Below, in pieces: positions 38,337 to 56,008 of a stretch of 64,000 nucleotides of DNA. The stretch is from Escherichia coli (GTDB taxonomy: Bacteria; Pseudomonadota; Gammaproteobacteria; Enterobacterales; Enterobacteriaceae), in assembly GCF_003334335.1 (NCBI RefSeq), contig NZ_QOWQ01000013.1. The stretch is one strand, 5' to 3'. Under the pieces are notes generated by a model that did no database searches, had not been told where the DNA came from, and saw only the letters and a program-made list of their open reading frames with translations. Position numbers and translations under genes: made by a program. Position 1 is the first letter of the stretch. Every line of letters starts with the position of its first letter.

Positions 38337-39251
38337 TCACTCAAAATAGTCCATATCCAGTTTCGGCACCTTCAACAAACGTGAAGAAACCCCTACTTCG
38401 TTTTCGATCATTAAGTGCACCAGGCGTTCCCCATCAACCAACACCATACCCTCAACGGATTGGGCAAAGTCACGCGCCTGAGAAGTAAATCCAGAAGTGG
38501 TAATAAACACCCCACGTTTCGCTTTTTGCCCAGCCAGTGCGCCGTAAAATGCCTGTAATTCTGGCCTGCCTACAGTATTCTGCCAACGTTTTGCCTGAAC
38601 ATAAACTTTCTCCAGGCCAAGTTTATCAAGCGATATCACACCATCGATGCCACCATCTCCAGTACCGCCAACACGCTGCAAATCATCACGGTGGCCGCCA
38701 TACCCCAGGCGATGCAAAACATCCAGAACAATGACTTCAAAGCGCGAAGGAGAAACCTGCAATAAGTTTTCCAGAGCCTCATCAGCCACCGCATCACGAA
38801 GCTCTTTTAGCGCCTGATCTAACCGATCGTCCGGGCTGCTCTTTGCAAGTTCTTCATGATCGGGAGAGTCGGCTTTCGGATCTAAATCGACGGCATCCGG
38901 CCGTGACTTAAGTTTGACATTCACAAAATCGAAGGCCAGATGGTTCGTCTCCTGCTCCGTCATTGGCTGGGGATGAGACGCAACCCAGTCAAAACCCGCA
39001 GGAGTCAGGCACCATTTGCCACGCGACAAACTTTGCGACAACCCGGCACGTTTTAAACGGTCATGCGCCCAGCCTGCACGATTTTTATAAACAAGTTGTC
39101 CGCTGGTAATGACTTTCGCTCGCTGGCTGTCATCCAGTCCTAATGCATCCGCGGCAGCCTCATGAACATCACGCGCGGCTGCACCTTCCGGTTTTGTCGC
39201 CAGATAACGCAGAACAGGTTCAATAAATTTGTCATAGGTTGGAACCGTCAT
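38337..39251 (-). CDS. mrr: Type IV methylation-dependent restriction endonuclease Mrr
   Basis: 304 aa MTVPTYDKFIEPVLRYLATKPEGAAARDVHEAAADALGL; N-terminal winged helix plus C-terminal PD-(D/E)xK region. Confidence 0.9.
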   Translation of the reverse strand: MTVPTYDKFIEPVLRYLATKPEGAAARDVHEAAADALGLDDSQRAKVITSGQLVYKNRAGWAHDRLKRAGLSQSLSRGKWCLTPAGFDWVASHPQPMTEQETNHLAFDFVNVKLKSRPDAVDLDPKADSPDHEELAKSSPDDRLDQALKELRDAVADEALENLLQVSPSRFEVIVLDVLHRLGYGGHRDDLQRVGGTGDGGIDGVISLDKLGLEKVYVQAKRWQNTVGRPELQAFYGALAGQKAKRGVFITTSGFTSQARDFAQSVEGMVLVDGERLVHLMIENEVGVSSRLLKVPKLDMDYFE

Positions 39252-39438: not shown

Positions 39439-42400
39439 ATGATGAATAAATCCAATTTTGAATTCCTGAAGGGCGTCAACGACTTCACTTATGCCATCGC
39501 CTGTGCGGCGGAAAATAACTACCCGGATGATCCCAACACGACGCTGATTAAAATGCGTATGTTTGGCGAAGCCACAGCGAAACATCTTGGTCTGTTACTC
39601 AACATCCCCCCTTGTGAGAATCAACACGATCTCCTGCGCGAACTCGGCAAAATCGCCTTCGTTGATGACAACATCCTCTCTGTATTCCACAAATTACGCC
39701 GCATTGGTAACCAGGCGGTGCACGAATATCATAACGATCTCGACGATGCCCAGATGTGTCTGCGGCTCGGGTTCCGCCTGGCTGTCTGGTACTACCGTCT
39801 GGTCACCAAAGATTATGACTTCCCGGTGCCGGTGTTTGTGTTGCCGGAACGTGGCAAAAACCTCTATTACCAGGAAGTGCTGACGCTAAAACAACAGCTT
39901 GAACAGCAGGCGCGAGAAAAAGCGCAGACTCAGGCAGAAGTCGAAGCGCAACAGCAGAAGCTGGTTGCCCTGAACGGCTATATCGCCATTCTGGAAGGCA
40001 AACAGCAGGAAACAGAAGCGCAAACCCAGGCTCGCCTTGCGGCGCTGGAAGCACAGCTTGCCGAGAAGAACGCGGAACTGGCAAAACAGACCGAACAGGA
40101 ACGTAAGGCTTACCACAAAGAAATTACCGATCAGGCCATCAAGCGCACACTCAACCTTAGCGAAGAAGAGAGTCGCTTCCTGATTGACGCGCAACTGCGT
40201 AAAGCAGGCTGGCAGGCCGATAGCAAAACCCTGCGCTTCTCCAAAGGCGCGCGCCCGGAACCCGGCGTCAATAAAGCCATTGCCGAATGGCCGACCGGGA
40301 AAGATGAAACGGGTAATCAGGGCTTTGCGGATTATGTGCTGTTTGTCGGCCTCAAGCCCATCGCGGTGGTAGAGGCGAAACGTAAAAATATCGACGTTCC
40401 CGGCAAGCTCAATGAGTCGTATCGCTACAGCAAATGCTTCGATAATGGCTTCCTGCGGGAAACCTTGCTTGAGCATTACTCGCCGGATGAAGTGCATGAA
40501 GCGGTGCCGGAGTATGAAACCAGCTGGCAGGACACCAGCGGCCAACAACGGTTTAAAATCCCCTTCTGCTACTCGACCAACGGGCGCGAATACCGCGCAG
40601 CAATGAAAACTAAAAGCGGCATCTGGTATCGCGACGTGCGTGATACCCGTAATATGTCGAAAGCCTTACCCGAGTGGCATCGCCCGGAAGAGCTGCTGGA
40701 AATGCTCGGCAGTGAACCGCAAAAACAGAATCAGTGGTTTGCCGATAACCCTGGCATGAGCGAGCTGGGCCTGCGTTATTATCAGGAAGATGCCGTCCGC
40801 GCGGTTGAAAAGGCAATCGTCAAGGGTCAACAAGAGATCCTGCTGGCGATGGCGACCGGTACCGGTAAAACCCGTACGGCAATCGCCATGATGTTCCGCC
40901 TGATCCAGTCCCAGCGTTTTAAACGCATTCTCTTCCTTGTCGACCGCCGTTCTCTTGGCGAGCAGGCGCTGGGGGCGTTTGAAGATACGCGTATTAACGG
41001 CGACACTTTCAACAGCATTTTCGACATTAAAGGGCTGACGGATAAATTCCCCGAAGACAGCACCAAAATTCACGTTGCCACCGTACAGTCGCTGGTGAAA
41101 CGCACCCTGCAATCAGATGAACCGATGCCGGTGGCCCGTTACGACTGTATCGTCGTCGATGAAGCGCATCGCGGCTATATTCTCGATAAAGAGCAGACCG
41201 AAGGCGAACTGCAGTTTCGCAGCCAGCTGGATTATGTCTCTGCCTACCGTCGCATTCTCGATCACTTCGATGCGGTAAAAATCGCCCTCACCGCCACCCC
41301 GGCGCTGCATACTGTGCAGATTTTCGGCGAGCCGGTTTACCGTTATACCTACCGTACCGCGGTTATCGACGGTTTTCTGATCGACCAGGATCCGCCTATT
41401 CAGATCATCACCCGCAACGCGCAGGAGGGGGTTTATCTCTCCAAAGGCGAGCAGGTAGAGCGCATCAGCCCGCAGGGAGAAGTGATCAACGACACCCTGG
41501 AAGACGATCAGGATTTTGAGGTCGCCGACTTTAACCGTGGCCTGGTGATCCCGGCGTTTAACCGCGCCGTCTGTAACGAACTCACCAATTATCTTGACCC
41601 GACCGGGTCACAAAAAACGCTGGTCTTCTGCGTCACTAATGCCCATGCCGATATGGTGGTGGAAGAGCTGCGTGCCGCGTTCAAGAAAAAGTATCCGCAA
41701 CTGGAGCACGACGCGATCATCAAGATCACCGGTGATGCCGATAAAGACGCGCGCAAAGTGCAGACCATGATCACCCGCTTCAATAAAGAGCGGTTGCCCA
41801 ATATCGTGGTGACCGTCGACCTGCTGACGACCGGCGTCGATATTCCGTCGATCTGTAATATCGTGTTCCTGCGTAAAGTACGCAGCCGCATTCTGTACGA
41901 ACAGATGAAAGGCCGCGCCACGCGCTTATGCCCGGAGGTGAATAAAACTAGCTTTAAGATTTTTGACTGTGTCGATATCTACAGCACGCTGGAGAGCGTC
42001 GACACCATGCGTCCGGTGGTGGTGCGCCCGAAGGTGGAACTGCAAACGCTGGTCAACGAAATTACCGATTCAGAAACCTATAAAATCACCGAAGCGGATG
42101 GCCGCAGTTTTGCCGAGCACAGCCATGAACAACTGGTGGCGAAGCTCCAGCGCATCATCGGCCTGGCCACGTTTAACCGTGACCGCAGCGAAACGATAGA
42201 TAAACAGGTGCGTCGTCTGGATGAGCTATGCCAGGACGCGGCGGGGGTGAACTTTAACGGCTTCGCCTCGCGTCTGCGGGAAAAAGGACCGCACTGGAGC
42301 GCCGAAGTCTTTAACAAACTGCCTGGCTTTATCGCCCGTCTGGAAAAGCTGAAAACCGATATCAACAATCTGAATGATGCGCCGATCTTCCTCGATATCG

Positions 42401-42951
42401 ACGATGAAGTGGTGAGTGTAAAATCGCTGTACGGTGATTACGACACACCGCAGGATTTCCTCGAAGCCTTTGACTCGCTGGTGCAACGTTCCCCGAACGC
42501 GCAACCGGCATTGCAGGCGGTGATCAATCGCCCGCGCGATCTCACCCGTAAAGGGCTGGTCGAGCTACAGGAGTGGTTTGACCGCCAGCACTTTGAGGAA
42601 TCTTCCCTGCGCAAAGCATGGAAAGAGACGCGCAATGAAGATATCGCCGCCCGGCTGATTGGTCATATTCGCCGCGCTGCGGTGGGCGATGCGCTGAAAC
42701 CGTTTGAGGAACGTGTCGATCACGCGCTGACGCGTATCAAGGGCGAAAACGACTGGAGCAGCGAGCAATTAAGCTGGCTCGATCGTTTAGCGCAGGCGCT
42801 GAAAGAGAAAGTGGTGCTCGACGACGATGTCTTCAAAACCGGCAACTTCCACCGTCGCGGCGGGAAGGCGATGCTGCAAAGAACCTTTGACGATAATCTC
42901 GATACCCTGCTGGGCAAATTCAGCGATTACATCTGGGACGAGCTCGCCTGA
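39439..42951 (+). CDS. hsdR: Type I restriction enzyme R subunit (EcoKI-like, family IA)
   Basis: 1170 aa from MMNKSNFEFLKGVNDFTYAIACAAENNYPDD; DEAD-box motifs (AMATGTGKT, VVDEAH). Confidence 0.95.
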   Translation: MMNKSNFEFLKGVNDFTYAIACAAENNYPDDPNTTLIKMRMFGEATAKHLGLLLNIPPCENQHDLLRELGKIAFVDDNILSVFHKLRRIGNQAVHEYHNDLDDAQMCLRLGFRLAVWYYRLVTKDYDFPVPVFVLPERGKNLYYQEVLTLKQQLEQQAREKAQTQAEVEAQQQKLVALNGYIAILEGKQQETEAQTQARLAALEAQLAEKNAELAKQTEQERKAYHKEITDQAIKRTLNLSEEESRFLIDAQLRKAGWQADSKTLRFSKGARPEPGVNKAIAEWPTGKDETGNQGFADYVLFVGLKPIAVVEAKRKNIDVPGKLNESYRYSKCFDNGFLRETLLEHYSPDEVHEAVPEYETSWQDTSGQQRFKIPFCYSTNGREYRAAMKTKSGIWYRDVRDTRNMSKALPEWHRPEELLEMLGSEPQKQNQWFADNPGMSELGLRYYQEDAVRAVEKAIVKGQQEILLAMATGTGKTRTAIAMMFRLIQSQRFKRILFLVDRRSLGEQALGAFEDTRINGDTFNSIFDIKGLTDKFPEDSTKIHVATVQSLVKRTLQSDEPMPVARYDCIVVDEAHRGYILDKEQTEGELQFRSQLDYVSAYRRILDHFDAVKIALTATPALHTVQIFGEPVYRYTYRTAVIDGFLIDQDPPIQIITRNAQEGVYLSKGEQVERISPQGEVINDTLEDDQDFEVADFNRGLVIPAFNRAVCNELTNYLDPTGSQKTLVFCVTNAHADMVVEELRAAFKKKYPQLEHDAIIKITGDADKDARKVQTMITRFNKERLPNIVVTVDLLTTGVDIPSICNIVFLRKVRSRILYEQMKGRATRLCPEVNKTSFKIFDCVDIYSTLESVDTMRPVVVRPKVELQTLVNEITDSETYKITEADGRSFAEHSHEQLVAKLQRIIGLATFNRDRSETIDKQVRRLDELCQDAAGVNFNGFASRLREKGPHWSAEVFNKLPGFIARLEKLKTDINNLNDAPIFLDIDDEVVSVKSLYGDYDTPQDFLEAFDSLVQRSPNAQPALQAVINRPRDLTRKGLVELQEWFDRQHFEESSLRKAWKETRNEDIAARLIGHIRRAAVGDALKPFEERVDHALTRIKGENDWSSEQLSWLDRLAQALKEKVVLDDDVFKTGNFHRRGGKAMLQRTFDDNLDTLLGKFSDYIWDELA

Positions 42952-43027: not shown

Positions 43028-44617
43028 ATGAACAATAACGATCTGGTCGCGAAGCTGTGGAAGCTGTGCGACAACCTGCGCGATGGCGGCGTTTCCTATC
43101 AAAACTATGTCAATGAACTCGCCTCGCTGCTGTTTTTGAAAATGTGTAAAGAGACCGGGCAGGAAGCGGAATACCTGCCGGAAGGCTACCGCTGGGATGA
43201 CCTGAAATCCCGCATCGGCCAGGAGCAGTTGCAGTTCTACCGTAACCTGCTGGTACATCTGGGCGCCGACAATCAAAAGCTGGTGCAGGCGGTGTTCCAG
43301 AACGTCAACACCACCATTACCCAGCCAAAACAGTTGACCGAACTGGTCAGCAATATGGATTCACTGGACTGGTACAACGGTGCGCACGGTAAGTCGCGCG
43401 ATGACTTCGGCGATATGTACGAAGGGTTGTTGCAGAAGAACGCGAACGAAACCAAGTCTGGCGCGGGCCAGTACTTCACCCCGCGTCCGCTGATTAAAAC
43501 CATTATTCATCTGCTGAAACCGCAGCCGCGTGAAGTAGTGCAGGACCCGGCAGCAGGTACAGCGGGCTTTTTGATTGAAGCCGACCGCTACGTTAAGTCG
43601 CAAACCAATGATCTGGACGACCTTGATGGCGACACGCAGGATTTCCAGATCCACCGCGCGTTTATCGGCCTCGAACTGGTGCCTGGCACCCGTCGTCTGG
43701 CGCTGATGAACTGCCTGCTGCACGATATTGAAGGCAACCTCGACCACGGCGGCGCAATCCGTCTGGGCAACACCCTGGGTAGCGATGGTGAAAACCTGCC
43801 AAAGGCGCATATTGTCGCCACTAACCCGCCGTTTGGCAGCGCCGCAGGCACCAACATTACCCGCACCTTTGTCCACCCGACCAGCAACAAACAGTTGTGC
43901 TTTATGCAGCATATTATCGAAACGCTGCATCCCGGCGGTCGTGCGGCGGTGGTGGTGCCGGATAACGTGCTGTTTGAAGGCGGCAAAGGCACCGACATCC
44001 GTCGTGACCTGATGGATAAGTGTCATCTGCACACCATTCTGCGTCTGCCGACCGGTATTTTTTACGCGCAGGGCGTGAAAACCAACGTGCTGTTCTTTAC
44101 CAAAGGGACGGTGGCAAATCCGCATCAGGATAAGAACTGTACTGATGACGTGTGGGTGTATGACCTGCGGACCAATATGCCGAGCTTCGGCAAGCGCACG
44201 CCGTTTACCGACGAGCATTTGCAGCCGTTTGAGCGCGTATATGGCGAAAACCCGCACGGCTTAAGCCCGCGCACGGAAGGGGAATGGAGTTTTAACGCCG
44301 AAGAGACGGAAGTTGCCGACAGCGAAGAGAACAAAAATACCGATCAGCATCTGGCTACCAGCCGCTGGCGCAAGTTCAGCCGCGAGTGGATCCGCACCGC
44401 GAAATCCGATTCGCTGGATATCTCCTGGTTAAAAGATAAAGACAGTATTGATGCTGACAGCCTGCCGGAGCCGGATGTATTAACGGCAGAAGCGATGGGC
44501 GAGCTGGTACAGGCATTGGGTGAACTGGATGCGCTGATGCGTGAACTGGGGGCGAGCGATGAGGCGGATGCGCAGCGTCAATTGCTGGAAGAAGCGTTTG
44601 GTGGGGTGAAGGAATGA
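43028..44617 (+). CDS. hsdM: Type I restriction-modification N6-adenine methyltransferase M subunit (EcoKI-like)
   Basis: 529 aa MNNNDLVAKLWKLCDNLRDGGVSYQNYVNELASLLFLKMC; NPPF catalytic motif (VATNPPFG). Confidence 0.95.
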   Translation: MNNNDLVAKLWKLCDNLRDGGVSYQNYVNELASLLFLKMCKETGQEAEYLPEGYRWDDLKSRIGQEQLQFYRNLLVHLGADNQKLVQAVFQNVNTTITQPKQLTELVSNMDSLDWYNGAHGKSRDDFGDMYEGLLQKNANETKSGAGQYFTPRPLIKTIIHLLKPQPREVVQDPAAGTAGFLIEADRYVKSQTNDLDDLDGDTQDFQIHRAFIGLELVPGTRRLALMNCLLHDIEGNLDHGGAIRLGNTLGSDGENLPKAHIVATNPPFGSAAGTNITRTFVHPTSNKQLCFMQHIIETLHPGGRAAVVVPDNVLFEGGKGTDIRRDLMDKCHLHTILRLPTGIFYAQGVKTNVLFFTKGTVANPHQDKNCTDDVWVYDLRTNMPSFGKRTPFTDEHLQPFERVYGENPHGLSPRTEGEWSFNAEETEVADSEENKNTDQHLATSRWRKFSREWIRTAKSDSLDISWLKDKDSIDADSLPEPDVLTAEAMGELVQALGELDALMRELGASDEADAQRQLLEEAFGGVKE

Positions 44618-45963
44618 GTGCGGGGAAATTGCCGGAGGGGTGGGTTGAAACCTACCTTTCTGAAATATGTAGTAAACCACAATATGGTTATACAACTAAG
44701 TCGAGCTTTACAGGTAATGTAAAATTTTTAAGAACTACAGATATTACTAAAGGTACTGTGGATTGGTCCACTGTACCTTATTGTTTGCAAAATCCTGATG
44801 ATATACTTAAATATCAGCTTCAAGATCGAGATATTGTTATATCCCGGGCTGGTTCCGTAGGTTTTAGTTTTTTAGTAAAAAACCCACCGAATAATGCTGT
44901 CTTTGCTTCGTACCTGATCAGATTCAAACCTTTTGATAATATTTCAGAGCTTTACTTGAAGCGTTTTTTAGAGTCCGGCAACTATTGGGTTCAGCTTGCC
45001 TCTATGTCGGCTGGAAATGCATTACAAAATGTAAATGCTCAAAAATTATCCACGCTTATAGTACCAATTCCTCCACTTGCCGAACAAAAAATCATCGCTG
45101 AAAAACTCGATACGCTGCTGGCGCAGGTAGAGAGCACCAAAGCACGTCTTGAGCAAATCCCACAAATCCTGAAACGTTTTCGTCAGGCGGTGCTATCTAG
45201 TGCTGTTAGCGGTAAGTTAATTGACAAAAGCTTCGAAAATAAATTAGAAAAGCTCAATTCGTTTGTATCTATAGATATTGGTAATGCGTTCAAAAGCTCA
45301 GAGTTTAGTGATGAAGGCGTTCCATTACTCCGAGGACAAAATATAGAACCCGGAGCATTACGTTGGGATGACACAAAAAAATTCCCAATAGATAAACTTC
45401 AAAAATATTCTCATTTATTTATTAATGAGGGCGATATTATATTAGCAATGGATCGCCCAATAATATCAAGCGGGTTAAAAATAGCTAAAGCCAAAAAAAG
45501 TGATCTTCCTTGCGTTCTGGTTCAACGAGTTGCCAGATTTAAAGATTTCGAAAATCTAATTCCTGACTATCTGTATTTGTTATTGAATGATGTGTCTTTT
45601 ATTAATTATATTCAACCAAATCAGACTGGTAGCGACATTCCGCATATCAGTGGAAAACAAATTTTAAACTTTGAGTGTAATGTCCCCTCTATCCCCGAAC
45701 AACGCGAAATCGTTCGCCGCGTCGAGCAACTCTTCGCCTACGCCGACACTATAGAAAAACAGGTTAACAACGCCTTAGCCCGCGTCAACAACCTGACGCA
45801 ATCCATCCTGGCAAAAGCGTTCCGTGGTGAGCTCACCGCCCAGTGGCGGGCCGAAAACCCGGAATTAATCAGCGGAGAAAACAGCGCCGCCGCGTTGCTG
45901 GAGAAAATCAAAGCTGAATGCGCAGCCAGCGGGGGTAAAAAAGCCTCGAGTAAAAAATCCTGA
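44614..45963 (+). CDS. hsdS: Type I R-M specificity subunit with EcoKI-type conserved framework but divergent target recognition domains
   Basis: 449 aa; conserved N-terminus (MSAGKLPEGWV), central (PIPPLAEQKIIAEKLDTLLAQV) and C-terminal (EIVRRVEQLFAYADTIEKQVNNALARV...) regions as in EcoKI HsdS from memory; the two intervening TRDs are AT-rich and different. ATGA start/stop overlap with hsdM. Confidence 0.9.
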   Translation: MSAGKLPEGWVETYLSEICSKPQYGYTTKSSFTGNVKFLRTTDITKGTVDWSTVPYCLQNPDDILKYQLQDRDIVISRAGSVGFSFLVKNPPNNAVFASYLIRFKPFDNISELYLKRFLESGNYWVQLASMSAGNALQNVNAQKLSTLIVPIPPLAEQKIIAEKLDTLLAQVESTKARLEQIPQILKRFRQAVLSSAVSGKLIDKSFENKLEKLNSFVSIDIGNAFKSSEFSDEGVPLLRGQNIEPGALRWDDTKKFPIDKLQKYSHLFINEGDIILAMDRPIISSGLKIAKAKKSDLPCVLVQRVARFKDFENLIPDYLYLLLNDVSFINYIQPNQTGSDIPHISGKQILNFECNVPSIPEQREIVRRVEQLFAYADTIEKQVNNALARVNNLTQSILAKAFRGELTAQWRAENPELISGENSAAALLEKIKAECAASGGKKASSKKS

Positions 45964-45975: not shown

Positions 45976-46003
45976 GGCGCACCTTTCCGGTGCGCTTTTT
46001 ATT
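45976..46003 (+). terminator. Rho-independent terminator after hsdS
   Basis: ggcgcacc-tttcc-ggtgcgc hairpin followed by tttttatt. Confidence 0.7.
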
Positions 46004-46097
46004 ATTTTACACCAATCATAACCCACACAAATATATTTAAATCATTCCAGAAATTGCCTATTTTATTCTATTTTTAGCTGGACTTTCCCTGTATTTA

Positions 46098-46113
46098 CTG
46101 ATGATATATCCAG
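46098..46113. promoter_or_regulatory. LexA (SOS) box upstream of symE
   Basis: CTGATGATATATCCAG fits CTG-N10-CAG with AT-rich centre (consensus CTGTATATATATACAG), about 80 bp upstream of the symE ATG. Confidence 0.65.
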
Positions 46114-46139
46114 GTATTTAGCGCGGTGCGGATGTGCGC

Positions 46140-46220
46140 CAACACACCCGCACCGCTAATCACAATCACTATTTATAGGGAATAGCAGTTATGACTGACA
46201 CGCATTCTATTGCACAACCG
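46140..46220 (-). ncRNA. symR: Probable SymR antisense sRNA (type I antitoxin) overlapping the symE 5' end
   Basis: Placement from the known K-12 arrangement, where SymR is encoded antisense across the symE ribosome-binding site and start codon; boundaries not determinable from sequence alone. Confidence 0.35.
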
Positions 46221-46532
46221 TTCGAAGCAGAAGTCTCCCCGGCAAATAACCGTCAATTAACCGTGAGTTATGCGAGTCGCTACCCGGATTACAGCCGTAT
46301 TCCCGCCATCACCCTGAAAGGTCAGTGGCTGGAAACCGCCGGTTTTGCTACCGGCACGGCGGTAGATGTCAAAGTGATGGAAGGCTGTATTGTCCTCACC
46401 GCCCAACCACCTGCCGCCGAAGAGAGCGAACTGATGCAGTCACTGCGCCAGGTGTGCAAACTGTCGGCGCGTAAACAAAAGCAGGTGCAGGAATTTATTG
46501 AGGTGATTGCCGGTAAACGAAAAGTCGCCTGA
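46191..46532 (+). CDS. symE: SOS-induced toxin SymE (AbrB/MazE-fold endoribonuclease-like)
   Basis: 113 aa [48 protein letters not shown]. Confidence 0.9.
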
Positions 46533-46540
46533 TACATTGA

Positions 46541-46570
46541 CCCGGTAGCGCCAGTGCTACCGGGTATTAT
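46541..46570. terminator. Bidirectional terminator between convergent symE and the GmrSD-like gene
   Basis: cccggtagc-gccagt-gctaccggg hairpin followed by tattatt. Confidence 0.6.
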
Positions 46571-46578
46571 TCGCCACG

Positions 46579-48672
46579 TTATACCAACGCGCTCTCCATC
46601 TGTTTTTCAAATGCCTGACGGATTAATCCCATAATGTAAGGAAGTTGTGCGAGGTCGCTGAAACCAATTTCTACATCGCCATTGCCCCAGCGCCCAACAT
46701 TTGTCACATCTTTGGCAATACCTTTCGGATCGACCAGTTCATGAAACTGCATATTAAGCGACAATCGCAGTCGGCTTTTTTGCGGCACAACATCAACAAA
46801 GTTCGTTTCCGCTTTAAACGCAATATAGAGCTTCAATACTTCCTGCGTGATCCCTGCGTCCAGGCGCATAACTTCATCGCGAAGATGATCGAATAACTCC
46901 CGACTATGCGAACCATCAGCAAGAAAAGGAAAATCATTCAGGCTGTAATTGGTTTTGTTTTCAGGCTTCCCCCGATAAACAGCTAAAACCTCTTCAGGAA
47001 GAGCAGGCGCTTGCCAGACCTGAATTGCAAGCTCTGCCAGACGATCGGCTCGGGCGTGAATGGCGGCTTCATCCCATTTTTCGCACTGTCCAAGACCGAT
47101 ATTCAAATAGAGCGGGCTATGTTTAAAGCCGTCTTCAATATCGCGTTTTTCCGCGAAAGGTCTGTCACTGTAGCGGGAGTTATAGCGCGTTAATGTGAGA
47201 TTCCCCAACGTATGCAACAGTTCTTTATGAATGCGTTGCCAGTCACTTCCCAGCTCTTCACGCCATTTAGCCGACAAATTTTCGTTCTGCGGCATAATAT
47301 GTTCAATCGTAAACTCTTCCACGCGCTCTCTGCGTTTATCGTTTTCCAGTCGTCGTAACCAGTAACTGCGACTGCGGAAGTTATAGAGATCGCGAACTTT
47401 TAATTCCCGTTTAAATTCATCATCGTTGGGGAAACGACGATATGAAGGTAGATTCAGAAAATGTACCTGAATACTTTCCAGATAATTTTCTTTATTAATG
47501 ACCTTATAAAAAGTAGCAAACGTCTTGTTAAGAGAATTTGTCGGAATCGCACATACTGCACGGCGGAAAACATAAGATTCAATTAAACGAATTATGTTCA
47601 GGAAATCTTCTTGAGACAAAACGCCATTTTTATAGTCATGATAAAGCGCCAGTAAGAAAGGATACGCCACATCGACCTTTAACTCGCGCAAATCCTGAAA
47701 AGCCGTAGCAAGCGATTTGTCACTTTCTTTTCCCAATGCCATTGCACAGTAATACTCCGCGTAGATGTGAATATCTTCAACCAGCCGATCTACGCCTTTT
47801 TCAGCAACACTCTGGCTGCGGGCATGGAGTTTAAATGCCTCATAGACTTCATCTGTCCGAGGGATCTCCCCTGTTTTTACCGTCAGATAATGACGCATAA
47901 AACTGTCAAAATATTCGCTGTAACCTTGCTGACCAAACGCGACTTCCATTGGACGCCAGTGATCTTCATACAACCGGGTTTGATGCTCTGGTTCGAGGCC
48001 CATCAGAATAAAATTGCGCACCAGATCGGCCTGACTTAACGCCTTACCGGTGGAGTTCATACTTTCAAAAATCAGTTGCGGATTATCCTGACCACGATTA
48101 AGCGCCACATCGACAATTAATAATTTTGCTAACCCACGACATAAGGGAATCAAATCATCCCCGAGTTTGGCAATTTGTTCATCAAAGAAAGTAAAGTTTT
48201 CCATTATTCGATGGGAATAGTTTTCTGGCATTGGTCTTTGTTTTATTAACGCCAGCAAACTGTCTTTATCAGTCTCGGTCAGCAGTAATTTAAATCCTTT
48301 CTCGCCGGACTCATAAGGATTGAGTAAATAATAATTACGCAATTTCATTGCTGAAAAGCCATCAAAAACTTCGTCTTCGCCAAGATGACGCGATAAAGCC
48401 TCAATCAGCAACATTGCGGTCGTCAGCCTTTGTTGACCATCAATGACCAGTAACGGAGAAATACCAGAAACCTGATACAACCCCTGCTCAATATAAACAA
48501 CCGAACCGATAAAATGCGCTGATATATCGTCACGCTTTCCGGCACGAATGATGTCGTCCCAAAGTTGCCGACATTGTTGTTCTGTCCATGAATAAGTCCG
48601 TTGATAAATGGGAATAACAAACTGCTGCGAACGTTTTAAAAAATCGAGTAGGCGGGCTTCTGTAGCTTTCAT
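46579..48672 (-). CDS. DUF262-DUF1524 (GmrSD-like) putative modification-dependent type IV restriction nuclease with unassigned C-terminal extension
   Basis: 697 aa; N-terminal IPIYQRTYSW and LLVIDGQQRLTTAML (DUF262 DGQQR motif); EHIMPQN...LGNLTL (DUF1524 His-Me finger-like); about 140 further residues of unknown affinity; sits where I recall K-12 having mcrBC. Confidence 0.75.
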   Translation of the reverse strand: MKATEARLLDFLKRSQQFVIPIYQRTYSWTEQQCRQLWDDIIRAGKRDDISAHFIGSVVYIEQGLYQVSGISPLLVIDGQQRLTTAMLLIEALSRHLGEDEVFDGFSAMKLRNYYLLNPYESGEKGFKLLLTETDKDSLLALIKQRPMPENYSHRIMENFTFFDEQIAKLGDDLIPLCRGLAKLLIVDVALNRGQDNPQLIFESMNSTGKALSQADLVRNFILMGLEPEHQTRLYEDHWRPMEVAFGQQGYSEYFDSFMRHYLTVKTGEIPRTDEVYEAFKLHARSQSVAEKGVDRLVEDIHIYAEYYCAMALGKESDKSLATAFQDLRELKVDVAYPFLLALYHDYKNGVLSQEDFLNIIRLIESYVFRRAVCAIPTNSLNKTFATFYKVINKENYLESIQVHFLNLPSYRRFPNDDEFKRELKVRDLYNFRSRSYWLRRLENDKRRERVEEFTIEHIMPQNENLSAKWREELGSDWQRIHKELLHTLGNLTLTRYNSRYSDRPFAEKRDIEDGFKHSPLYLNIGLGQCEKWDEAAIHARADRLAELAIQVWQAPALPEEVLAVYRGKPENKTNYSLNDFPFLADGSHSRELFDHLRDEVMRLDAGITQEVLKLYIAFKAETNFVDVVPQKSRLRLSLNMQFHELVDPKGIAKDVTNVGRWGNGDVEIGFSDLAQLPYIMGLIRQAFEKQMESALV

Positions 48673-48768
48673 TCTGACGTCTTTCCGTGAAGCGATGATT
48701 TCGCAATAATAACCACTTCCTTGTGGAGGTTATAGAGAAATCCTGTTTATCCGCGACGAACTGCCCCC

Positions 48769-48933
48769 TCACTCCACATCCTCCCTGCGTAACCCAATAT
48801 CCCTCAACCGCTCATCACTCATCTGCTGTAACACTCGTCGGGTCTGCATTTGCCGCCGCCAAAGCCTCACCGCCTGCCAGAGTTGCACAAGTCCAATAAA
48901 CGGTGCTTTAGCTTTGTTTTCGTGAAATTCCAT
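48769..48933 (-). CDS. yjiS: DUF1127 small protein YjiS
   Basis: Hand-translated (below the track length cutoff): MEFHENKAKAPFIGLVQLWQAVRLWRRQMQTRRVLQQMSDERLRDIGLRREDVE, 54 aa; strong RBS (gaggagg) upstream; 96 bp upstream of the GmrSD-like gene on the same strand. Confidence 0.75.
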   Translation of the reverse strand: MEFHENKAKAPFIGLVQLWQAVRLWRRQMQTRRVLQQMSDERLRDIGLRREDVE

Positions 48934-49109
48934 CTGCTGCCTCCTCATCTTTCAGAGGCTTCATCATCCGCCTTCTGGCAGCTCACAATACAGATGCAAA
49001 TATTAGTTTTATTTAACATACAAACAGGTTAAAACAGCATCTGCATCCGGTTTTTTAGCCTCATCTGTACCGGTTTTTCCCTCTGTATGGTCCAAATAAG
49101 GAATACAGC

Positions 49110-50522
49110 ATGACGCGTTATCAACATCTGGCGACTCTACTTGCCGAGCGGATTGAGCAGGGGCTGTATCGTCACGGGGAGAAATTGCCGTCGGTGCGCA
49201 GCTTAAGTCAGGAGCACGGCGTCAGTATCAGCACCGTGCAGCAGGCGTACCAGACGCTGGAGACGATGAAGCTCATCACTCCGCAGCCGTGTTCGGGTTA
49301 TTTTGTCGCACAACGGAAAGCCCAGCCGCCAGTACCGCCAATGACCCGTCCGGTGCAGCGCCCGGTGGAAATTACCCAGTGGGATCAGGTGCTGGATATG
49401 CTGGAGGCGCATAGCGACAGTTCCATTGTTCCGTTAAGTAAAAGCACGCCGGATGTCGAAACGCCCAGCCTGAAACCGCTGTGGCGGGAGCTAAGCCGGG
49501 TGGTGCAGCATAATCTGCAAACCGTTCTCGGTTATGACTTGTTAGCCGGTCAGCGAGTGTTGCGAGAGCAGATTGCCCGCCTGATGCTCGACAGCGGCTC
49601 GGTAGTCACCGCCGATGACATCATCATTACCAGCGGCTGCCATAACTCGATGTCGCTGGCGTTAATGGCGGTGTGTAAACCGGGCGATATTGTCGCGGTC
49701 GAATCCCCCTGTTATTACGGTTCGATGCAGATGCTGCGTGGCATGGGCGTGAAAGTGATTGAAATCCCAACCGATCCAGAAACAGGCATCAGCGTTGAAG
49801 CGCTGGAACTGGCGCTGGAGCAGTGGCCGATTAAAGGCATCATTCTGGTGCCAAACTGTAATAATCCGCTGGGATTTATTATGCCGGACGCGCGCAAACG
49901 GGCCGTTCTCTCTCTCGCTCAACGTCATGATATTGTGATTTTTGAAGATGATGTCTACGGTGAACTGGCAACGGAGTATCCGCGCCCGCGGACCATTCAT
50001 TCCAGGGATATCGACGGGCGAGTGCTGCTGTGCGGCTCGTTCAGTAAAAGTATTGCACCTGGCCTGCGCGTGGGCTGGGTCGCACCGGGGCGCTATCACG
50101 ATAAACTGCTGCATATGAAATATGCCATCAGCAGCTTTAATGTGCCGTCCACGCAAATGGCGGCGGCAACGTTTGTGCTGGAAGGTCACTATCATCGCCA
50201 TATCCGGCGGATGCGGCAGATCTATCAGCGCAATCTGGCACTTTATACCTGCTGGATACGGGAATATTTTCCCTGCGAAATCTGTATTACGCGCCCGAAA
50301 GGCGGATTTTTACTGTGGATAGAATTGCCTGAACAGGTCGATATGGTCTGCGTCGCGCGGCAGCTGTGCCGCATGAAAATCCAGGTGGCGGCAGGCTCGA
50401 TTTTCTCGGCTTCCGGCAAATACCGTAATTGTCTGCGCACCAACTGCGCTTTGCCGCTCAGCGAAACCTATCGCGAAGCACTGAAGCAAATTGGCGAGGC
50501 CGTGTATCGGGCAATGGAATAA
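49110..50522 (+). CDS. yjiR: MocR-family regulator (GntR HTH fused to aminotransferase-like PLP domain)
   Basis: 470 aa; N-terminal GntR HTH (LPSVRSLSQEHGVSISTVQQAYQTLE), C-terminal fold-type I aminotransferase domain. Confidence 0.85.
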   Translation: MTRYQHLATLLAERIEQGLYRHGEKLPSVRSLSQEHGVSISTVQQAYQTLETMKLITPQPCSGYFVAQRKAQPPVPPMTRPVQRPVEITQWDQVLDMLEAHSDSSIVPLSKSTPDVETPSLKPLWRELSRVVQHNLQTVLGYDLLAGQRVLREQIARLMLDSGSVVTADDIIITSGCHNSMSLALMAVCKPGDIVAVESPCYYGSMQMLRGMGVKVIEIPTDPETGISVEALELALEQWPIKGIILVPNCNNPLGFIMPDARKRAVLSLAQRHDIVIFEDDVYGELATEYPRPRTIHSRDIDGRVLLCGSFSKSIAPGLRVGWVAPGRYHDKLLHMKYAISSFNVPSTQMAAATFVLEGHYHRHIRRMRQIYQRNLALYTCWIREYFPCEICITRPKGGFLLWIELPEQVDMVCVARQLCRMKIQVAAGSIFSASGKYRNCLRTNCALPLSETYREALKQIGEAVYRAME

Positions 50523-50621
50523 ATTCGACATAGTGGCGAAGCGCCTGATTTCCTCTCACGAATAGAGTGTGACTCGTTTTATCTTTGCAGGGTAATCGCC
50601 ACGTTCCAGCATGGCTTAGGC

Positions 50622-50745
50622 AAAGTGCGCTTTGTTCATACCGGATGCGATGTGAACGCCTTACCAGGTCTACAAAATCTTTAAAGTTAAATATATTTAA
50701 TGGGTTATGTAGACCTGATAAGCGTAGCGCATCAGGCTGCTTTGC
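50622..50745. repeat. REP/BIME pair flanking an AT-rich core downstream of yjiR
   Basis: ccggatgcgatgtgaacgccttaccaggtctacaaaa ... ttatgtagacctgataagcgtagcgcatcaggc inverted arrangement. Confidence 0.7.
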
Positions 50746-50764
50746 GTTTGTCATCAGTCTCTGA

Positions 50765-51721
50765 TTAGTACTCGATCCATGGATCGCGCTTGCTTTCAGG
50801 CAAGGGCTGATCTAATGCCTGCATTTGCTCTGCCGAAAGTCCGGTATATCGTTGTATCCATTCAGGATCCGCCCCATTCTGCAACAACAATCGGAGGAGG
50901 CTCTTTTCCCCTTCTTCTTTCCCTTCTTTCCTCCCCCTCTCCCTTCCCAACAGCCATCCATCATTATGAATTCGCTCTGCAATCGTCATTATTCGCTCCC
51001 TGTGTTGTGGCATTCGACGGATAAGTTCGCTGATAAACTCATTAAAACGCGCTTCATCGCCAGTCAGTAAAATGTAATTTAACAGCGCGGTTATCTGGCT
51101 GTCATTAGCGCACCCTGTAACCAGTAATACTGCCAGTTGATCAATAAGCCCCATTAGATCGCGCTGGCGAATATGCTTTTGGATCAACTCCAGCAGGGCG
51201 ACTCTGCGATGCTGCACAATCTCGTCGTCTGGCACGACAGTGACATCCACCAGCGGGAACGCTGCGGTATAAAGCTTCCGTGCGGTAGCCGGGTCGGCAA
51301 ATTCGTCCAGCCAGCACAAAGACCAGGGGTAAGGACTACGGCTACCGTGATAAAACAGCATCGGGATGACCAGCGGTAGCGGCCGGCGTTTATCATGCTC
51401 GATATGGCGCTGCATCACCGCCATGGAATATCGCATCAGGCGAAAGGCCATATGGATATCCTCGCGGCTCTGATGTTCAATCACCACATAAATATAGCCA
51501 TCTCCTTCGCGGGTCTTTACCGACCACAGAATATCGGAATGTAGCGCCCGCAATTTTTCATCGACAAAGCTGGCGTATTCCAGTTTTAAGCTGTCGAGAT
51601 CGCACAGTTCACGTAAATCTTTGGGTAAGTGGATCTCCATAAAATCCCGCGCGGTGTCAGGGTGGGTGAGAAAAGATTTAAATAATGCGTCATGCGGCGT
51701 GCTGGTCGTGAAGTTTGTCAT
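50765..51721 (-). CDS. rpnD: Rpn-family recombination-promoting nuclease (PD-(D/E)xK, transposase_31-like), apparently intact
   Basis: 318 aa [33 protein letters not shown]...; single uninterrupted frame; the gene is split as yjiP/yjiQ in K-12 (from memory). Confidence 0.7.
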
Positions 51722-52187
51722 GGCGATCCGTCACCTGTAGATAAGATGGCCCGACTGTAGCGACTAACAAAACCATTCTCACCCGGCAATTTCCCATTCC
51801 CCGAGGTGCTTTCCAGGCTATTTTTGTTCCTCTGCAAACGATACATTTTTCCGGAAACAGGCTCGCGTTTTACATTTCCTGTACCCGGCAGATATTCCCC
51901 TTTCCACCGCACTCTTTTGATTAACCGCAAATTTTAATTACACTTAAGGTGTATATTTTCTATGCAACCCATCAATTCAAGAGGTGTAATGTGCTGATGA
52001 CTATTTGTAATCGTTATACATTCTGACCTGGAGTCAGAAGGTATTTCTCTGTCTGTGTGTTCACAGGCAGTGTGGTTGATTACATGAAATTCAGTACATT
52101 TGTCCTTCTCGCCTGCCTTTCGTCATTACCGACGGTATTGAATTTCGTTTTCCCCATTGGGGTTCTCCGGACAAGGAGTTGTTTGTT

Positions 52188-53420
52188 ATGCCACGTTTTT
52201 TTGCCCGCCATGCCGCCACGCTGTTTTTCCCGATGGCGTTGATTTTGTATGACTTTGCTGCGTATCTGTCGACGGACCTGATCCAGCCAGGGATCATTAA
52301 TGTGGTCCGTGATTTTAATGCCGATGTCAGTCTGGCCCCTGCTGCCGTCAGTCTCTATCTTGCTGGCGGTATGGCGTTACAGTGGCTGCTGGGGCCGCTT
52401 TCCGACAGAATTGGCCGCAGGCCGGTGCTGATTACCGGGGCGTTAATTTTTACCCTTGCCTGCGCCGCGACAATGTTCACCACGTCAATGACACAATTTC
52501 TTATCGCGCGTGCAATTCAGGGCACCAGTATCTGTTTTATTGCCACCGTTGGTTATGTCACGGTGCAGGAGGCGTTCGGACAGACAAAAGGGATCAAGTT
52601 GATGGCGATTATCACCTCCATCGTACTGATTGCGCCGATTATCGGCCCGCTTTCCGGCGCAGCTCTGATGCACTTTGTGCACTGGAAAGTCCTTTTTGCC
52701 ATCATTGCGGTTATGGGTTTTATCTCATTTGTTGGCTTACTGCTGGCGATGCCAGAGACGGTGAAGCGCGGCGCGGTTCCATTTAGCGCCAAAAGCGTCT
52801 TGCGCGATTTTCGTAATGTCTTTTGCAATCGGCTGTTCCTCTTTGGCGCAGCAACCATCTCTTTAAGCTATATCCCCATGATGAGTTGGGTGGCTGTCTC
52901 GCCGGTGATCCTGATCGACGCGGGCGGCTTAACAACTTCGCAGTTCGCCTGGACACAGGTTCCGGTGTTCGGCGCGGTGATTGTCGCGAATGCCATCGTG
53001 GCGCGTTTCGTTAAAGATCCGACCGAACCGCGCTTTATCTGGCGTGCCGTACCCCTTCAACTGGTTGGCCTCGCGCTGTTGATTATCGGCAATCTGCTGT
53101 CACCGCACGTCTGGCTGTGGTCGGTGCTGGGCACCAGTCTGTATGCTTTCGGGATTGGTTTGATCTTCCCGACCTTATTCCGCTTTACGCTGTTTTCCAA
53201 TAACTTACCGAAAGGGACCGTCTCCGCATCGCTAAATATGGTGATCCTGATGGTGATGTCGGTCTCGGTCGAAATCGGCCGCTGGCTGTGGTTTAACGGC
53301 GGTCGCTTGCCGTTTCATCTATTAGCCGTTGTGGCGGGCGTTATCGTCGTTTTCACCCTGGCGGGATTGCTCAATCGCGTGCGCCAACATCAGGCTGCCG
53401 AGCTGGCGGAGGAGCGGTGA
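52188..53420 (+). CDS. mdtM: MFS multidrug efflux transporter MdtM
   Basis: 410 aa from [31 protein letters not shown]; 12-TM MFS. Confidence 0.9.
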
Positions 53421-53460
53421 TTTTTGCGCGATCCTACCGTCAGGCTCTATTCTTAACGTT

Positions 53461-54741
53461 ATGAATAAACTCATTGAACTCAGACGCGCCAAAATGTTGG
53501 CGCTCTCTTTATTGCTTATCGCCGCTGCTACCTTTGTCGTTACGCTGTTTTTGCCGCCCAATTTTTGGGTGAGCGGCGTGAAGGCGATTGCTGAAGCGGC
53601 GATGGTCGGCGCGCTGGCGGACTGGTTTGCGGTGGTGGCGCTGTTTCGCCGCGTGCCGATTCCGATCATTTCTCGTCATACGGCGATTATCCCGCGTAAT
53701 AAAGACCGGATTGGCGAAAATCTCGGTCAGTTCGTGCAGGAAAAATTTCTCGATACCCAGTCACTGGTGGCATTGATTCGACGTCACGAACCGGCGTTGT
53801 TGATTGGCAACTGGTTTAGTCAGCCGGAGAACGCCCGCCGCGTTGGTCAGCATCTGTTGCAGATCATGAGCGGTTTTCTTGAACTGACCGATGATGCGCG
53901 TATTCAGCGCCTGCTTAAGCGCGCGGTCCACCGGGCGATTGATAAGGTTGATCTTTCTGGCACCAGTGCGTTGATGCTGGAGAGTATGACCAAAAACGAT
54001 CGTCATCAGGTGCTGCTCGATACGCTGATCGCACAGTTGATCGCCCTGCTCCAGCGCGATAAATCGCGCAAGTTTATCGCCCAGCAAATTGTTCGCTGGC
54101 TGGAGAGCGAGCATCCGCTAAAAGCCAAAATTTTGCCCACTGAATGGCTGGGCGAACATAGCGCGGAGTTAGTTTCTGACGCGGTGAATTCTTTGCTTGA
54201 TGATATTAGTCGCGATCGTGCGCATCAGATCCGCCATGCGTTTGATCGCGCCACTTTTGCCCTGATCGACAAGCTGAAAAACGATCCTGAAATGGCAGCG
54301 CGAGCCGATGCCGTAAAAAGCTATCTGAAAGAAGATGAAGCTTTTAACCGCTATCTCAGTGAATTGTGGAGGGATTTACGGGAATGGCTGAAAGCGGATA
54401 TCAACAGTGAAGATTCTCGTGTGAAAGAACGTATCGCACGAGCGGGTCAATGGTTTGGCGAAACGTTAATTGCCGATGATGCCTTGCGGGCGTCGTTAAA
54501 TGGTCATCTGGAACAAGCCGCGCACCGCGTCGCGCCTGAGTTTTCCGCATTCCTGACGCGCCACATCAGCGATACGGTAAAAAGCTGGGATGCCAGGGAT
54601 ATGTCGCGGCAAATCGAGTTAAATATCGGCAAAGATCTGCAGTTTATTCGTGTTAACGGTACGCTGGTTGGCGGATGTATTGGGCTGATTTTGTATTTGC
54701 TTTCGCAGCTCCCGGCCTTGTTCCCCCTCGGCAATTTTTAG
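53461..54741 (+). CDS. yjiN: DUF445-family inner membrane protein
   Basis: 426 aa from [27 protein letters not shown] within track ORF 53329..54741. Confidence 0.85.
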
Positions 54742-54856
54742 AAATCCATGAAAAACTAAGTGGCTAACCGCGAGAGAGATCAAATAAACCATACTAAAAG
54801 AATGGTAATAATGTGGCCTCTTTTCATTATCTCCCGTGGTACGGGGAAGGAAAATC

Positions 54857-56008
54857 ATGTCACTTGTCACCGATCTACCCGCCATTTTCGATCAGTTCTC
54901 TGAAGCTCGCCAGAAAGGCTTTCTCACCGTCATGGATCTCAAGGAGCGCGGCATTCCGCTGGTTGGCACCTACTGCACCTTTATGCCGCAAGAGATCCCG
55001 ATGGCAGCCGGTGCAGTTGTGGTTTCGCTCTGTTCCACCTCTGATGAAACCATTGAAGAAGCCGAGAAAGATCTGCCGCGCAACCTCTGCCCGCTGATTA
55101 AAAGCAGCTACGGCTTCGGCAAAACCGATAAATGCCCCTACTTCTACTTTTCTGATCTGGTGGTCGGTGAAACCACCTGCGACGGCAAAAAGAAAATGTA
55201 TGAATACATGGCGGAGTTTAAGCCTGTTCATGTGATGCAGTTACCGAACAGCGTTAAGGACGATGCCTCGCGTGCATTGTGGAAAGCCGAGATGCTGCGC
55301 TTGCAAAAAACGGTAGAAGAACGTTTTGGGCACGAGATTAGCGAAGATGCTCTGCGCGATGCCATTGCGCTGAAAAACCGCGAACGTCGCGCACTGGCTA
55401 ATTTTTATCATCTTGGGCAGTTAAATCCTCCGGCGCTTAGCGGCAGCGACATTCTGAAAGTGGTTTACGGCGCAACCTTCCGGTTCGATAAAGAGGCGTT
55501 GATCAATGAACTGGATGCAATGACCGCCCGCGTTCGTCAGCAGTGGGAAGAAGGCCAGCGACTGGACCCGCGTCCGCGCATTTTAATCACCGGCTGCCCG
55601 ATTGGCGGCGCAGCAGAAAAAGTGGTGCGCGCGATTGAAGAGAATGGCGGCTGGGTTGTCGGTTATGAAAACTGCACCGGGGCGAAAGCGACCGAGCAAT
55701 GCGTGGCAGAAACGGGCGATGTCTACGACGCGCTGGCGGATAAATATCTGGCGATTGGCTGCTCCTGTGTTTCGCCGAACGATCAGCGCCTGCAAATGCT
55801 CAGCCAGATGGTTGAAGAATATCAGGTCGATGGCGTAGTTGATGTGATTTTGCAGGCGTGCCATACCTACGCGGTGGAATCGCTGGCAATTAAACGTCAT
55901 GTGCGTCAGCAGCACAACATTCCTTATATCGCTATTGAAACAGACTACTCCACCTCAGATGTCGGGCAGCTCAGCACCCGCGTCGCGGCCTTTATTGAGA
56001 TGCTGTAA
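54857..56008 (+). CDS. yjiM: 2-hydroxyacyl-CoA dehydratase-like protein (HGD-D family component)
   Basis: 383 aa from MSLVTDLPAIFDQFSEARQKGFLTVMDL; conserved Cys residues typical of the dehydratase component. Confidence 0.8.
   Translation: MSLVTDLPAIFDQFSEARQKGFLTVMDLKERGIPLVGTYCTFMPQEIPMAAGAVVVSLCSTSDETIEEAEKDLPRNLCPLIKSSYGFGKTDKCPYFYFSDLVVGETTCDGKKKMYEYMAEFKPVHVMQLPNSVKDDASRALWKAEMLRLQKTVEERFGHEISEDALRDAIALKNRERRALANFYHLGQLNPPALSGSDILKVVYGATFRFDKEALINELDAMTARVRQQWEEGQRLDPRPRILITGCPIGGAAEKVVRAIEENGGWVVGYENCTGAKATEQCVAETGDVYDALADKYLAIGCSCVSPNDQRLQMLSQMVEEYQVDGVVDVILQACHTYAVESLAIKRHVRQQHNIPYIAIETDYSTSDVGQLSTRVAAFIEML

Follow-up and report, generated by a model that had tools for sequence, protein, structure and literature searches.

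Reassortment of target recognition domains (TRDs) on a conserved framework, at a locus within the immigration control region (ICR), has been the textbook model of type IA restriction-modification (R-M) diversity since the 1980s. Among the described systems, EcoKI of Escherichia coli K-12 (target AAC N6 GTGC) and EcoBI of E. coli B (TGA N8 TGCT) are the closest to the locus considered here. Membership of the type IA family rests on subunit exchange and complementation (PMC12707154), and TRD reassortment drives type I diversification (PMC3874165). All type IA enzymes leave 8 bp between the methylated bases (PMC3874165 Table 1), a spacing that the conserved helical regions determine (PMC3874165, PMC12707154).

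The stretch of DNA analysed herein, 64 kb in length (the window), very probably carries an intact chromosomal type IA R-M system of the ICR, with TRDs bearing no relation to their EcoKI and EcoBI counterparts; this hsdS would be an allele from a cassette pool, with a target other than that of EcoKI. The locus and its neighbours are laid out as follows:

38337..39251, minus strand: mrr (type IV restriction enzyme), left neighbour in the ICR; 99.3% amino acid identity to K-12 Mrr; PADLOC mREase_IV
39439..42951, plus strand: hsdR, type IA restriction/translocase subunit, 1170 aa counted from the K-12 start
43028..44617, plus strand: hsdM, type IA m6A methyltransferase subunit, 529 aa
44614..45963, plus strand: hsdS, specificity subunit, 449 aa, open reading frame intact
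45976..45996, plus strand: terminator-like GC-rich hairpin, then a T-run, 13 nt past the hsdS stop
46120-46196, minus strand: symR, antisense to symE; Rfam RF01809, 94.3 bits
46191..46532, plus strand: symE, conserved right neighbour of hsdS; NCBIfam NF010128, 229 bits

The gene order mrr-hsdR-hsdM-hsdS-symE is the same in K-12 and REL606, i.e., the loci are syntenic. For hsdR, an in-frame ATG at 39385 provides an alternative start (yielding 1188 aa). The start codon of hsdS and the stop codon of hsdM overlap within the sequence ATGA, keeping the translational coupling of the two genes, and the ribosome-binding site GAAGGA is preserved. Past hsdS, the hairpin (an 8-bp stem with 6 GC pairs, then TTTTTATTATT) was detected by a consensus scan as a pattern match only, and this candidate probably terminates the hsdMS transcript. 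Further downstream in the window, a GmrSD-like gene takes the place occupied by mcrBC in K-12. With best matches at 97-99%, an origin of the window outside E. coli was considered and discarded: the window flanks display up to 99.2% identity to E. coli genomes, the exact HsdS carries an E. coli annotation, and the lower identity over hsd reflects the known hypervariability of this locus.

As the initial annotation had maintained, HsdR and HsdM are close to their EcoKI counterparts, with 99.2% amino acid (97.95% nucleotide) and 97.2% amino acid (94.8% nucleotide) identity, respectively; these values serve as a sequence proxy for interchangeability with the EcoKI subunits. HsdR matches NCBIfam NF008521 at 1740 bits (cut-off 729) and carries the DEAH (motor) motif at residue 574, while HsdM is detected by PADLOC as MTase_I (764 bits) and carries the NPPF (m6A methyltransferase) motif at residue 266, each motif being at the same position as in K-12. 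The differences between HsdM and its EcoKI counterpart are clustered, with 10 of 15 located in residues 73-105; within hsdM, positions 43137-43436 resemble E. coli B (97.7% identity, vs 88.7% to K-12). The hsdR, hsdM, and hsdS reading frames are all full length, with catalytic motifs present, and would together encode a putatively active type I R-M enzyme. Beyond the similarity of hsdR and hsdM, the allelic ICR position next to mrr and symE is that of the type IA family, as is the HsdS layout (TRD1-CR1-TRD2-CR2), the segments of which are:

44614..44646, plus strand: hsdS N-terminal conserved framework (aa 1-11), 33 of 33 nt identical to K-12 hsdS
44647..45061, plus strand: TRD1, N-terminal target recognition domain (hsdS nt 34-448, aa 12-149), expected reader of the 5' half-site
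45062..45191, plus strand: central conserved region, first coiled-coil helix (hsdS nt 449-578)
45192..45696, plus strand: TRD2, C-terminal target recognition domain (hsdS nt 579-1083, aa 194-361), expected reader of the 3' half-site
45697..45963, plus strand: C-terminal conserved region, second coiled-coil helix plus tail (hsdS nt 1084-1350)

The initial annotation had proposed that hsdS keeps its framework segments while both TRDs differ from K-12, and this contrast is borne out. The three framework segments are 95-100% identical to K-12 at the nucleotide level (100%, 96.2%, and 95.1% for the N-terminal, central, and C-terminal segments, respectively) and 93-100% identical to EcoKI at the amino acid level. 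In the central region, 41 of 44 residues are identical to EcoKI (and 41 of 44 to EcoBI), as are 84 of 88 residues to EcoKI in the C-terminal region, with zero indels in either. In contrast, neither TRD1 (nt 34-448) nor TRD2 (nt 579-1083) yields any nucleotide alignment to K-12 hsdS; the limits suggested for these domains (~44650-45050 and 45200-45700) lie within about 10 nt of those measured. A changed specificity had been made to hinge on the TRDs not being identical to those of EcoKI HsdS, and amino acid identity is 20% for TRD1 and 25% for TRD2, with multiple indels in the alignments; relative to EcoBI (REL606 HsdS), the values are 15% and 22%. HsdS matches NCBIfam NF007278 over its full length at 558.5 bits, under the EcoKI-equivalog cut-off of 662, a value that fits a shared scaffold bearing different TRDs. 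HsdS thus does not group as an isoschizomer of EcoKI, nor, at the TRD identities above, of EcoBI.

The AlphaFold model of HsdS (pLDDT 83.5) displays two globular domains and long helices at residues 155-199 and 360-402, i.e., the predicted structure has the type I S-subunit fold, with two TRDs joined by two long antiparallel helices. Its best PDB match is EcoKI S (2y7c; Foldseek E=1e-30), with further matches to 1yf2, 5ybb (TMt 0.77), and 3okg, and the protein carries Pfam PF01420. For the TRDs themselves, PDB sequence and fold searches returned remote relatives only (<=20% identity), too distant for a half-site to be transferred.

On this scaffold, the conserved segments of HsdS would form an antiparallel coiled coil and provide the docking sites for two HsdM subunits. 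Following the established type I mechanism, M2S would methylate one adenine per half of the bipartite target, and R2M2S would translocate and then cut DNA with unmethylated targets. Of the two half-sites, the 5' one would be dictated by TRD1 and the 3' one, as its complement, by TRD2. As the coiled-coil framework is that of EcoKI without indels, the two methylated adenines are expected to keep the 8-bp distance common to the type IA family. Given that the TRDs are unrelated to those of EcoKI, and that such modules are exchanged between alleles, we strongly infer from the sequence that the target differs from AAC N6 GTGC. Low-identity TRDs can occasionally read the same half-site, including diverged TRDs of different families, and non-identity to the EcoKI TRDs is thus no strict proof of a different target. 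Even so, with identities this low, multiple indels, and an NF007278 score under the equivalog cut-off, it is barely conceivable that these TRDs read the EcoKI half-sites (AAC, GCAC) and leave the target unchanged.

Base composition sets the TRDs apart from their surroundings. TRD1 has a GC content of 0.353 and TRD2 one of 0.343 (vs 0.49 in the central and 0.55 in the C-terminal region of hsdS, 0.556 in hsdM, and 0.507 in the whole window), with a TRD1 GC3 of 0.26. The GC-window check that the initial annotation had recommended places both TRDs in the lowest 2-3% of same-size windows over the 64 kb (z ~ -2.6 to -2.9). The excess of A and T over the framework was hence rightly perceived, yet its interpretation as a signature of TRD swapping has to be abandoned. 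The EcoKI TRDs are equally AT-rich (GC 0.349 and 0.348), and TRD GC is 0.33-0.39 in EcoBI, strain 1105, HKUOPY1, and the Klebsiella and Salmonella orthologues; across this comparison set of EcoKI, EcoBI, and four other alleles, AT-richness characterises type IA TRDs in general and so is no mark of a swap here.

With GC values of 0.34-0.35 and a GC3 far under host values, and with TRD1 homologues at 50-60% identity in distant phyla, the TRDs might be regarded as a recent import from a low-GC donor, their AT-richness being the unameliorated trace of a single transfer. We consider this very improbable, since every type IA allele examined has such TRDs. Moreover, the Klebsiella and Salmonella orthologues retain a GC of 0.35-0.37 and a GC3 of 0.23-0.28 despite synonymous sites that are saturated relative to the window; low GC kept across such divergence indicates that the composition is long-standing and maintained rather than freshly imported. 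A tblastn search of 72,556 plasmids also returned no close TRD match (best full-length match <=41% identity), leaving a plasmid origin of the TRDs unsupported. That the AT-richness of type IA TRDs is generic, and is kept over saturated synonymous divergence, is a mildly interesting by-product of our study, and argues against taking it as evidence for recent acquisition.

Support for exchange comes instead from the distribution of the two modules. In E. albertii, E. coli, and E. marmotae, copies of TRD1 with 98-100% amino acid identity are combined with TRD2s unrelated to that of the window, and E. marmotae and E. albertii likewise have TRD2 (>=98%; e.g., proteins P0211 and P0226) next to an unrelated TRD1; this mix-and-match set comprises about 40 proteins from 3 Escherichia species, with TRD1 found in the complete genomes 1105, MS1170, MS1266, and VTB97074v. 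Set against an E. coli allele of 98% identity, the hsdS of the window shows 0.2% nucleotide divergence in TRD2 but 5.2% in the adjoining C-terminal framework. The occurrence of each TRD at >=98% with unrelated partners is real evidence for cassette shuffling. The initial proposal of TRD swapping by recombination therefore holds on account of these exchanged modules, though not through the AT-richness first advanced for it. The allele of the window would be one draw from a cassette pool, common to Escherichia, Klebsiella, Salmonella, and other Enterobacterales, in which TRDs are reshuffled by recombination in the conserved framework DNA.

The same TRD pair is present at the syntenic locus in Klebsiella (Klebsiella pasteurii) and Salmonella, and the allele is no recent one-off. 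In this comparison, synonymous sites of both TRDs are at or near saturation, dN is 0.13-0.20, and TRD1 dN/dS is about 0.07; the pair is under strong purifying selection. A more far-reaching reading, which we advance tentatively and consider rather less than evenly probable, is that the bipartite m6A target of this pair is unassigned in REBASE, and that the pair is a trans-species allele under balancing selection, with AT-rich TRDs that are actively maintained. That selection would be frequency-dependent and act across Escherichia, Klebsiella, and Salmonella; a GC3 that stays near 0.26 although synonymous sites are saturated would then reflect upkeep and not a relic of import.

Some related alleles are interrupted, with hsdS truncated by IS1 in strain HCP6S3_I1 and an ISL3 element inserted beside hsdS in L007. 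The system in the window could itself be silent or decaying, whether as an orphan remnant or through an hsdS that is inactive or not expressed. This is very improbable in light of the three full-length reading frames with intact catalytic motifs, the ATGA coupling and GAAGGA ribosome-binding site, the low TRD1 dN/dS, and the confident structure prediction for HsdS, all of which favour an intact system.

An identical HsdS protein is public (P0194; UniRef UPI000B4272A1) and was detected in 60 index blocks of an assembly collection, the public copies being from E. coli draft assemblies; 98% variants are present in 301 contigs (complete genomes among them), as well as in E. marmotae. The allele is already known to databases and is not new there. 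Of the new type IA specificity that had been proposed, the replacement of the EcoKI TRDs stands, whereas novelty is not established. Within complete E. coli genomes, TRD2 was detected in 2 of 5426 by sensitive blastn (plus one weak partial match), and the full TRD1+TRD2 pair is equally rare (2 of 5426). Carriers include strain 23AR0806 (NZ_CP195434) and the strains of assemblies GCA_040707435.1, GCA_052183855.1, and GCA_036619415.1. Since, among complete E. coli genomes, TRD2 is confined to the two carriers of the full allele, no well-studied strain can lend a motif. When the TRDs alone were queried against a 5.8-billion-protein collection, candidates were apparently limited to about the query length, rendering the full-length HsdS query the informative one; the TRD-alone matches were short fragments only, with 50-60% homologues in many phyla and no named, characterised enzyme among them.

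The pair, or each TRD, may nevertheless match an enzyme in REBASE whose motif is known, making the system merely another isoschizomer, a possibility to which we assign slightly less than an even chance. The exact protein and its 98% variants are publicly widespread, REBASE sorts E. coli type I systems by motif at scale (with 104 under Eco646I; PMC8287963), and TRD1 is carried by several complete genomes of E. albertii and E. coli that may have been SMRT-sequenced. Against this, the full pair is rare among complete E. coli genomes, and the literature searched yielded no methylome for any carrier strain or HsdS protein accession; E. coli type I methylome surveys, together with Salmonella and E. 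albertii methylomes, contained no motif assignable to either TRD.

At a practical level, K-12 modification would not protect DNA transformed or transduced into carrier strains, and assignment of the target would add one or two TRD-to-half-site entries to the code used for type I specificity prediction. The practical value is thus limited and the conceptual addition none, as the phenomenon is ordinary, well-understood, textbook allelic variation.

Ultimately, the system resembles EcoKI in locus, gene order, HsdR and HsdM, HsdS framework, and S-subunit fold, and differs from it in both TRDs, which are unrelated in sequence, and in HsdS length (449 aa vs 464 aa in EcoKI). EcoBI likewise shares the central and C-terminal regions (the latter at 82 of 88 residues) and the B-like hsdM segment, and is distinguished by its own TRDs and by a longer N-terminus (3 of 11 residues identical). 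As in the natural and laboratory reassortants of type IA (StySPI, StyLTIII, and hybrid specificities that arose through recombination in the central conserved region), TRD1 and TRD2 would assort independently via conserved framework DNA; the TRD cassettes are presumably different from those of the StySPI/StyLTIII reassortants. The ICR architecture is the documented one, down to the presence of a GmrSD homologue instead of McrBC, itself a variant on record (PMC4437046, PMC12707154), and the ICR of the window is one more combination of known modules.

The hsdS open reading frame proposed in the initial annotation is present, and lies in the following cluster:

38337-39251, minus strand: mrr
39439-42951: hsdR
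43028-44617: hsdM, 529 aa
44614-45963, plus strand: hsdS, 449 aa
45976-45996: GC-rich hairpin and T-run, 3' of the hsdS stop codon
46120-46196, minus strand: symR antisense RNA (Rfam RF01809, 94 bits)
46191-46532, plus strand: symE, its product 93.8% identical to the K-12 protein
46579-48672, minus strand: GmrSD-type gene, 697 aa (DUF262/DUF1524 plus DUF5655; PADLOC "Orf5", 740 bits; HEC-06 also matches)

The hsdS ATG is preceded by GAAGGA and, within the sequence ATGA, overlaps the hsdM stop codon. As in K-12, symR overlaps the 5' end of symE. Elsewhere in the window, five tandem naRNA4/REP-type elements (Rfam RF02564) occupy 5869-6353, and one more (14023-14105) lies beside tRNA-Leu(CAG) at 14245-14331.

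At the nucleotide level, just three stretches of hsdS align with the K-12 gene, namely nt 1-33 (100% identity), 449-578 (96.2%), and 1084-1350 (95.1%). Neither target recognition domain (TRD), i.e., TRD1 at 44647-45061 or TRD2 at 45192-45696, yielded a nucleotide alignment to K-12 hsdS; the retained framework and replaced TRDs described in the initial annotation are thus borne out, with its estimated TRD boundaries within about 10 nt of those measured. When the protein was aligned jointly with its EcoKI and EcoBI counterparts, the central region of HsdS matched each at 41 of 44 residues and the C-terminal region matched them at 84 and 82 of 88, respectively, with no indels in either region. 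Identity to EcoKI and EcoBI was 20% and 15% for TRD1, and 25% and 22% for TRD2. The NCBIfam equivalog model for EcoKI-type S subunits aligned end to end at 558.5 bits, below its cut-off of 662, as expected from a conserved scaffold with foreign TRDs. An AlphaFold model (pLDDT 83.5) comprises two globular domains plus a pair of long helices (residues 155-199 and 360-402); its closest PDB matches are type I S subunits, with the EcoKI S model 2y7c the best.

In type I S subunits, an antiparallel coiled coil of the conserved regions sets a fixed spacing of the two TRDs; M2S methylates one adenine per half-site, while R2M2S restricts DNA with unmethylated sites. Given non-EcoKI TRDs on a type IA scaffold, a target different from that of EcoKI is well supported. 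New specificities arise by recombination between TRDs (PMC3874165), and in every type IA enzyme the methylated bases lie 8 bp apart, a spacing set by the conserved helices (PMC3874165; PMC12707154). Because the helices of the window HsdS equal those of EcoKI in length, this rule would give a bipartite target methylated at an 8-bp interval, with half-sites predicted to be other than AAC and GCAC.

Both TRDs are indeed more AT-rich than the flanking framework, with GC contents of 0.353 (GC3 0.26) for TRD1 and 0.343 (GC3 0.27) for TRD2, against 0.49 for the central region, 0.55 for the C-terminal region, 0.556 for hsdM, and 0.507 for the whole window; both fall within the lowest 2-3% of same-size windows over the 64 kb. 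The initial annotation took this as the signature of TRD swapping. However, composition is non-diagnostic here, as the TRDs of EcoKI itself have GC contents of 0.349 and 0.348. Those of EcoBI stand at 0.367 and 0.328, those of the strain 1105 and HKUOPY1 alleles between 0.345 and 0.39, and those of Klebsiella and Salmonella orthologues at 0.35-0.37. Moreover, the latter hold a GC3 of about 0.23-0.28 despite synonymous saturation relative to the window (pS 0.67-0.80); in the Klebsiella pasteurii (L012) and Salmonella enterica (L014) loci, with hsdS at 6001-7350, TRD GC3 is still low while the hosts' hsdM has a GC of 0.58. AT-richness is therefore a long-standing trait of TRDs in the type IA family, and not the trace of a swap made recently in this strain. 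The persistently low GC3 in these hosts suggests that the AT-rich composition is kept up, whether by selection or by a common pool of cassettes, and does not drift toward that of the host. GC is lowest in the window at 57000-59000 and 16500-17000 (0.29-0.31), below even the hsdS TRDs; one of these stretches lies inside a 712-aa ORF (57361-59499), in the region that is annotated in relatives as a pentapeptide-repeat protein or inverse autotransporter IatD.

The TRD1+TRD2 pair recurs at 76-80% amino acid identity per TRD at the syntenic mrr-hsdRMS-symE locus of Klebsiella pasteurii/michiganensis and one Salmonella enterica assembly. With dN/dS of about 0.07 for TRD1, and dN of 0.14-0.20 at saturated dS for TRD2, the cassettes are old, under purifying selection, and apparently functional.

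TRD modularity was examined by scoring each TRD separately across 120 full-length HsdS homologues. Both TRDs were matched at ≥98% in E. coli, E. marmotae, and an Escherichia sp.; TRD1 at 98-100% accompanied an unrelated TRD2 in many E. albertii and several E. coli and E. marmotae proteins, and TRD2 at ≥98% an unrelated TRD1 in E. marmotae, E. albertii, and metagenomic proteins. TRD1 at about 80%, or TRD2 at about 72-85%, occurred with other partners in Salmonella, Klebsiella, Serratia, Pantoea, Proteus, Citrobacter, Providencia, and Enterobacter. The type IA hsdS framework was matched in 926 of 5426 complete E. coli genomes, and the whole allele in just two (98.1% nucleotide identity). TRD1 is present in five further genomes, of which four pair it with a different TRD2 and the fifth has the gene cut short by IS1; a sensitive search of the complete E. 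coli genomes found TRD2 only in the two full-allele carriers. In strain HCP6S3_I1 (L004, 3001-4642), IS1 truncates an hsdS bearing the same TRD1; in a draft genome with an identical hsdS (L007, 4525-5745), an ISL3-family transposase and a DUF1706 gene sit between hsdS and symE.

Relative to the 98% E. coli allele (L001), TRD2 has a single change in 504 nt (0.2%), and the C-terminal framework (window 45697-45963; L001 10084-10350) 14 changes in 267 nt (5.2%). This mosaic of near-identical TRD2 and divergent framework points to recombination within the gene. Within this allele class, the "conserved" C-terminal framework is more polymorphic than the adjoining TRD2. Compared with K-12, B, and other strains, the entire hsd locus is a fine-grained mosaic, and hsdM itself is pieced together by recombination from blocks that are K-like or B-like. 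Its segment 43137-43436 (residues about 73-105) is only 88.7% identical to K-12, against about 98% for both E. coli B and strain 23AR0806; 10 of the 15 HsdM amino acid differences from EcoKI fall there. The complete genome nearest in the upstream flank (99.2%) carries an hsdS of EcoKI length (464 aa) and mcrBC. Over the flank 3' of hsdS (46000-64000), the best match among complete E. coli genomes is 97.5-98% identical and most (4669 records) are at 90-95%; the right-hand side of the immigration control region in this strain belongs to a lineage poorly represented among them.

The novelty initially claimed is unproven, an identical HsdS being already public (P0194; UniRef UPI000B4272A1, "restriction endonuclease subunit S [Escherichia coli]"). 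Identical HsdS recurs in the assembly collection (60 index blocks), likewise within hsdR-hsdM-hsdS-symE-GmrSD, and the 98% variant on 301 contigs. The searchable literature yielded neither a recognition sequence for the allele nor a methylome for any carrier, and plasmids and PDB entries no relative close enough for half-site transfer. This hsdS is an already catalogued allele, assembled from cassettes that many lineages share, and an ordinary case of a long-understood phenomenon.

As initially annotated, HsdR and HsdM are near-EcoKI (99.2% and 97.2% protein identity; Mrr, 99.3%), with the NPPF (HsdM) and DEAH (HsdR) motifs at the same residue positions as in K-12. Gene order from mrr to symE is that of the immigration control region of K-12 and E. 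coli B, whereas the GmrSD-type gene, a putative type IV restriction enzyme whose homologue in strain NY1601 is broken into fragments, occupies the position of their mcrBC, a variant previously described (He et al. 2015, PMC4437046; EcoSal Plus 2025, PMC12707154).
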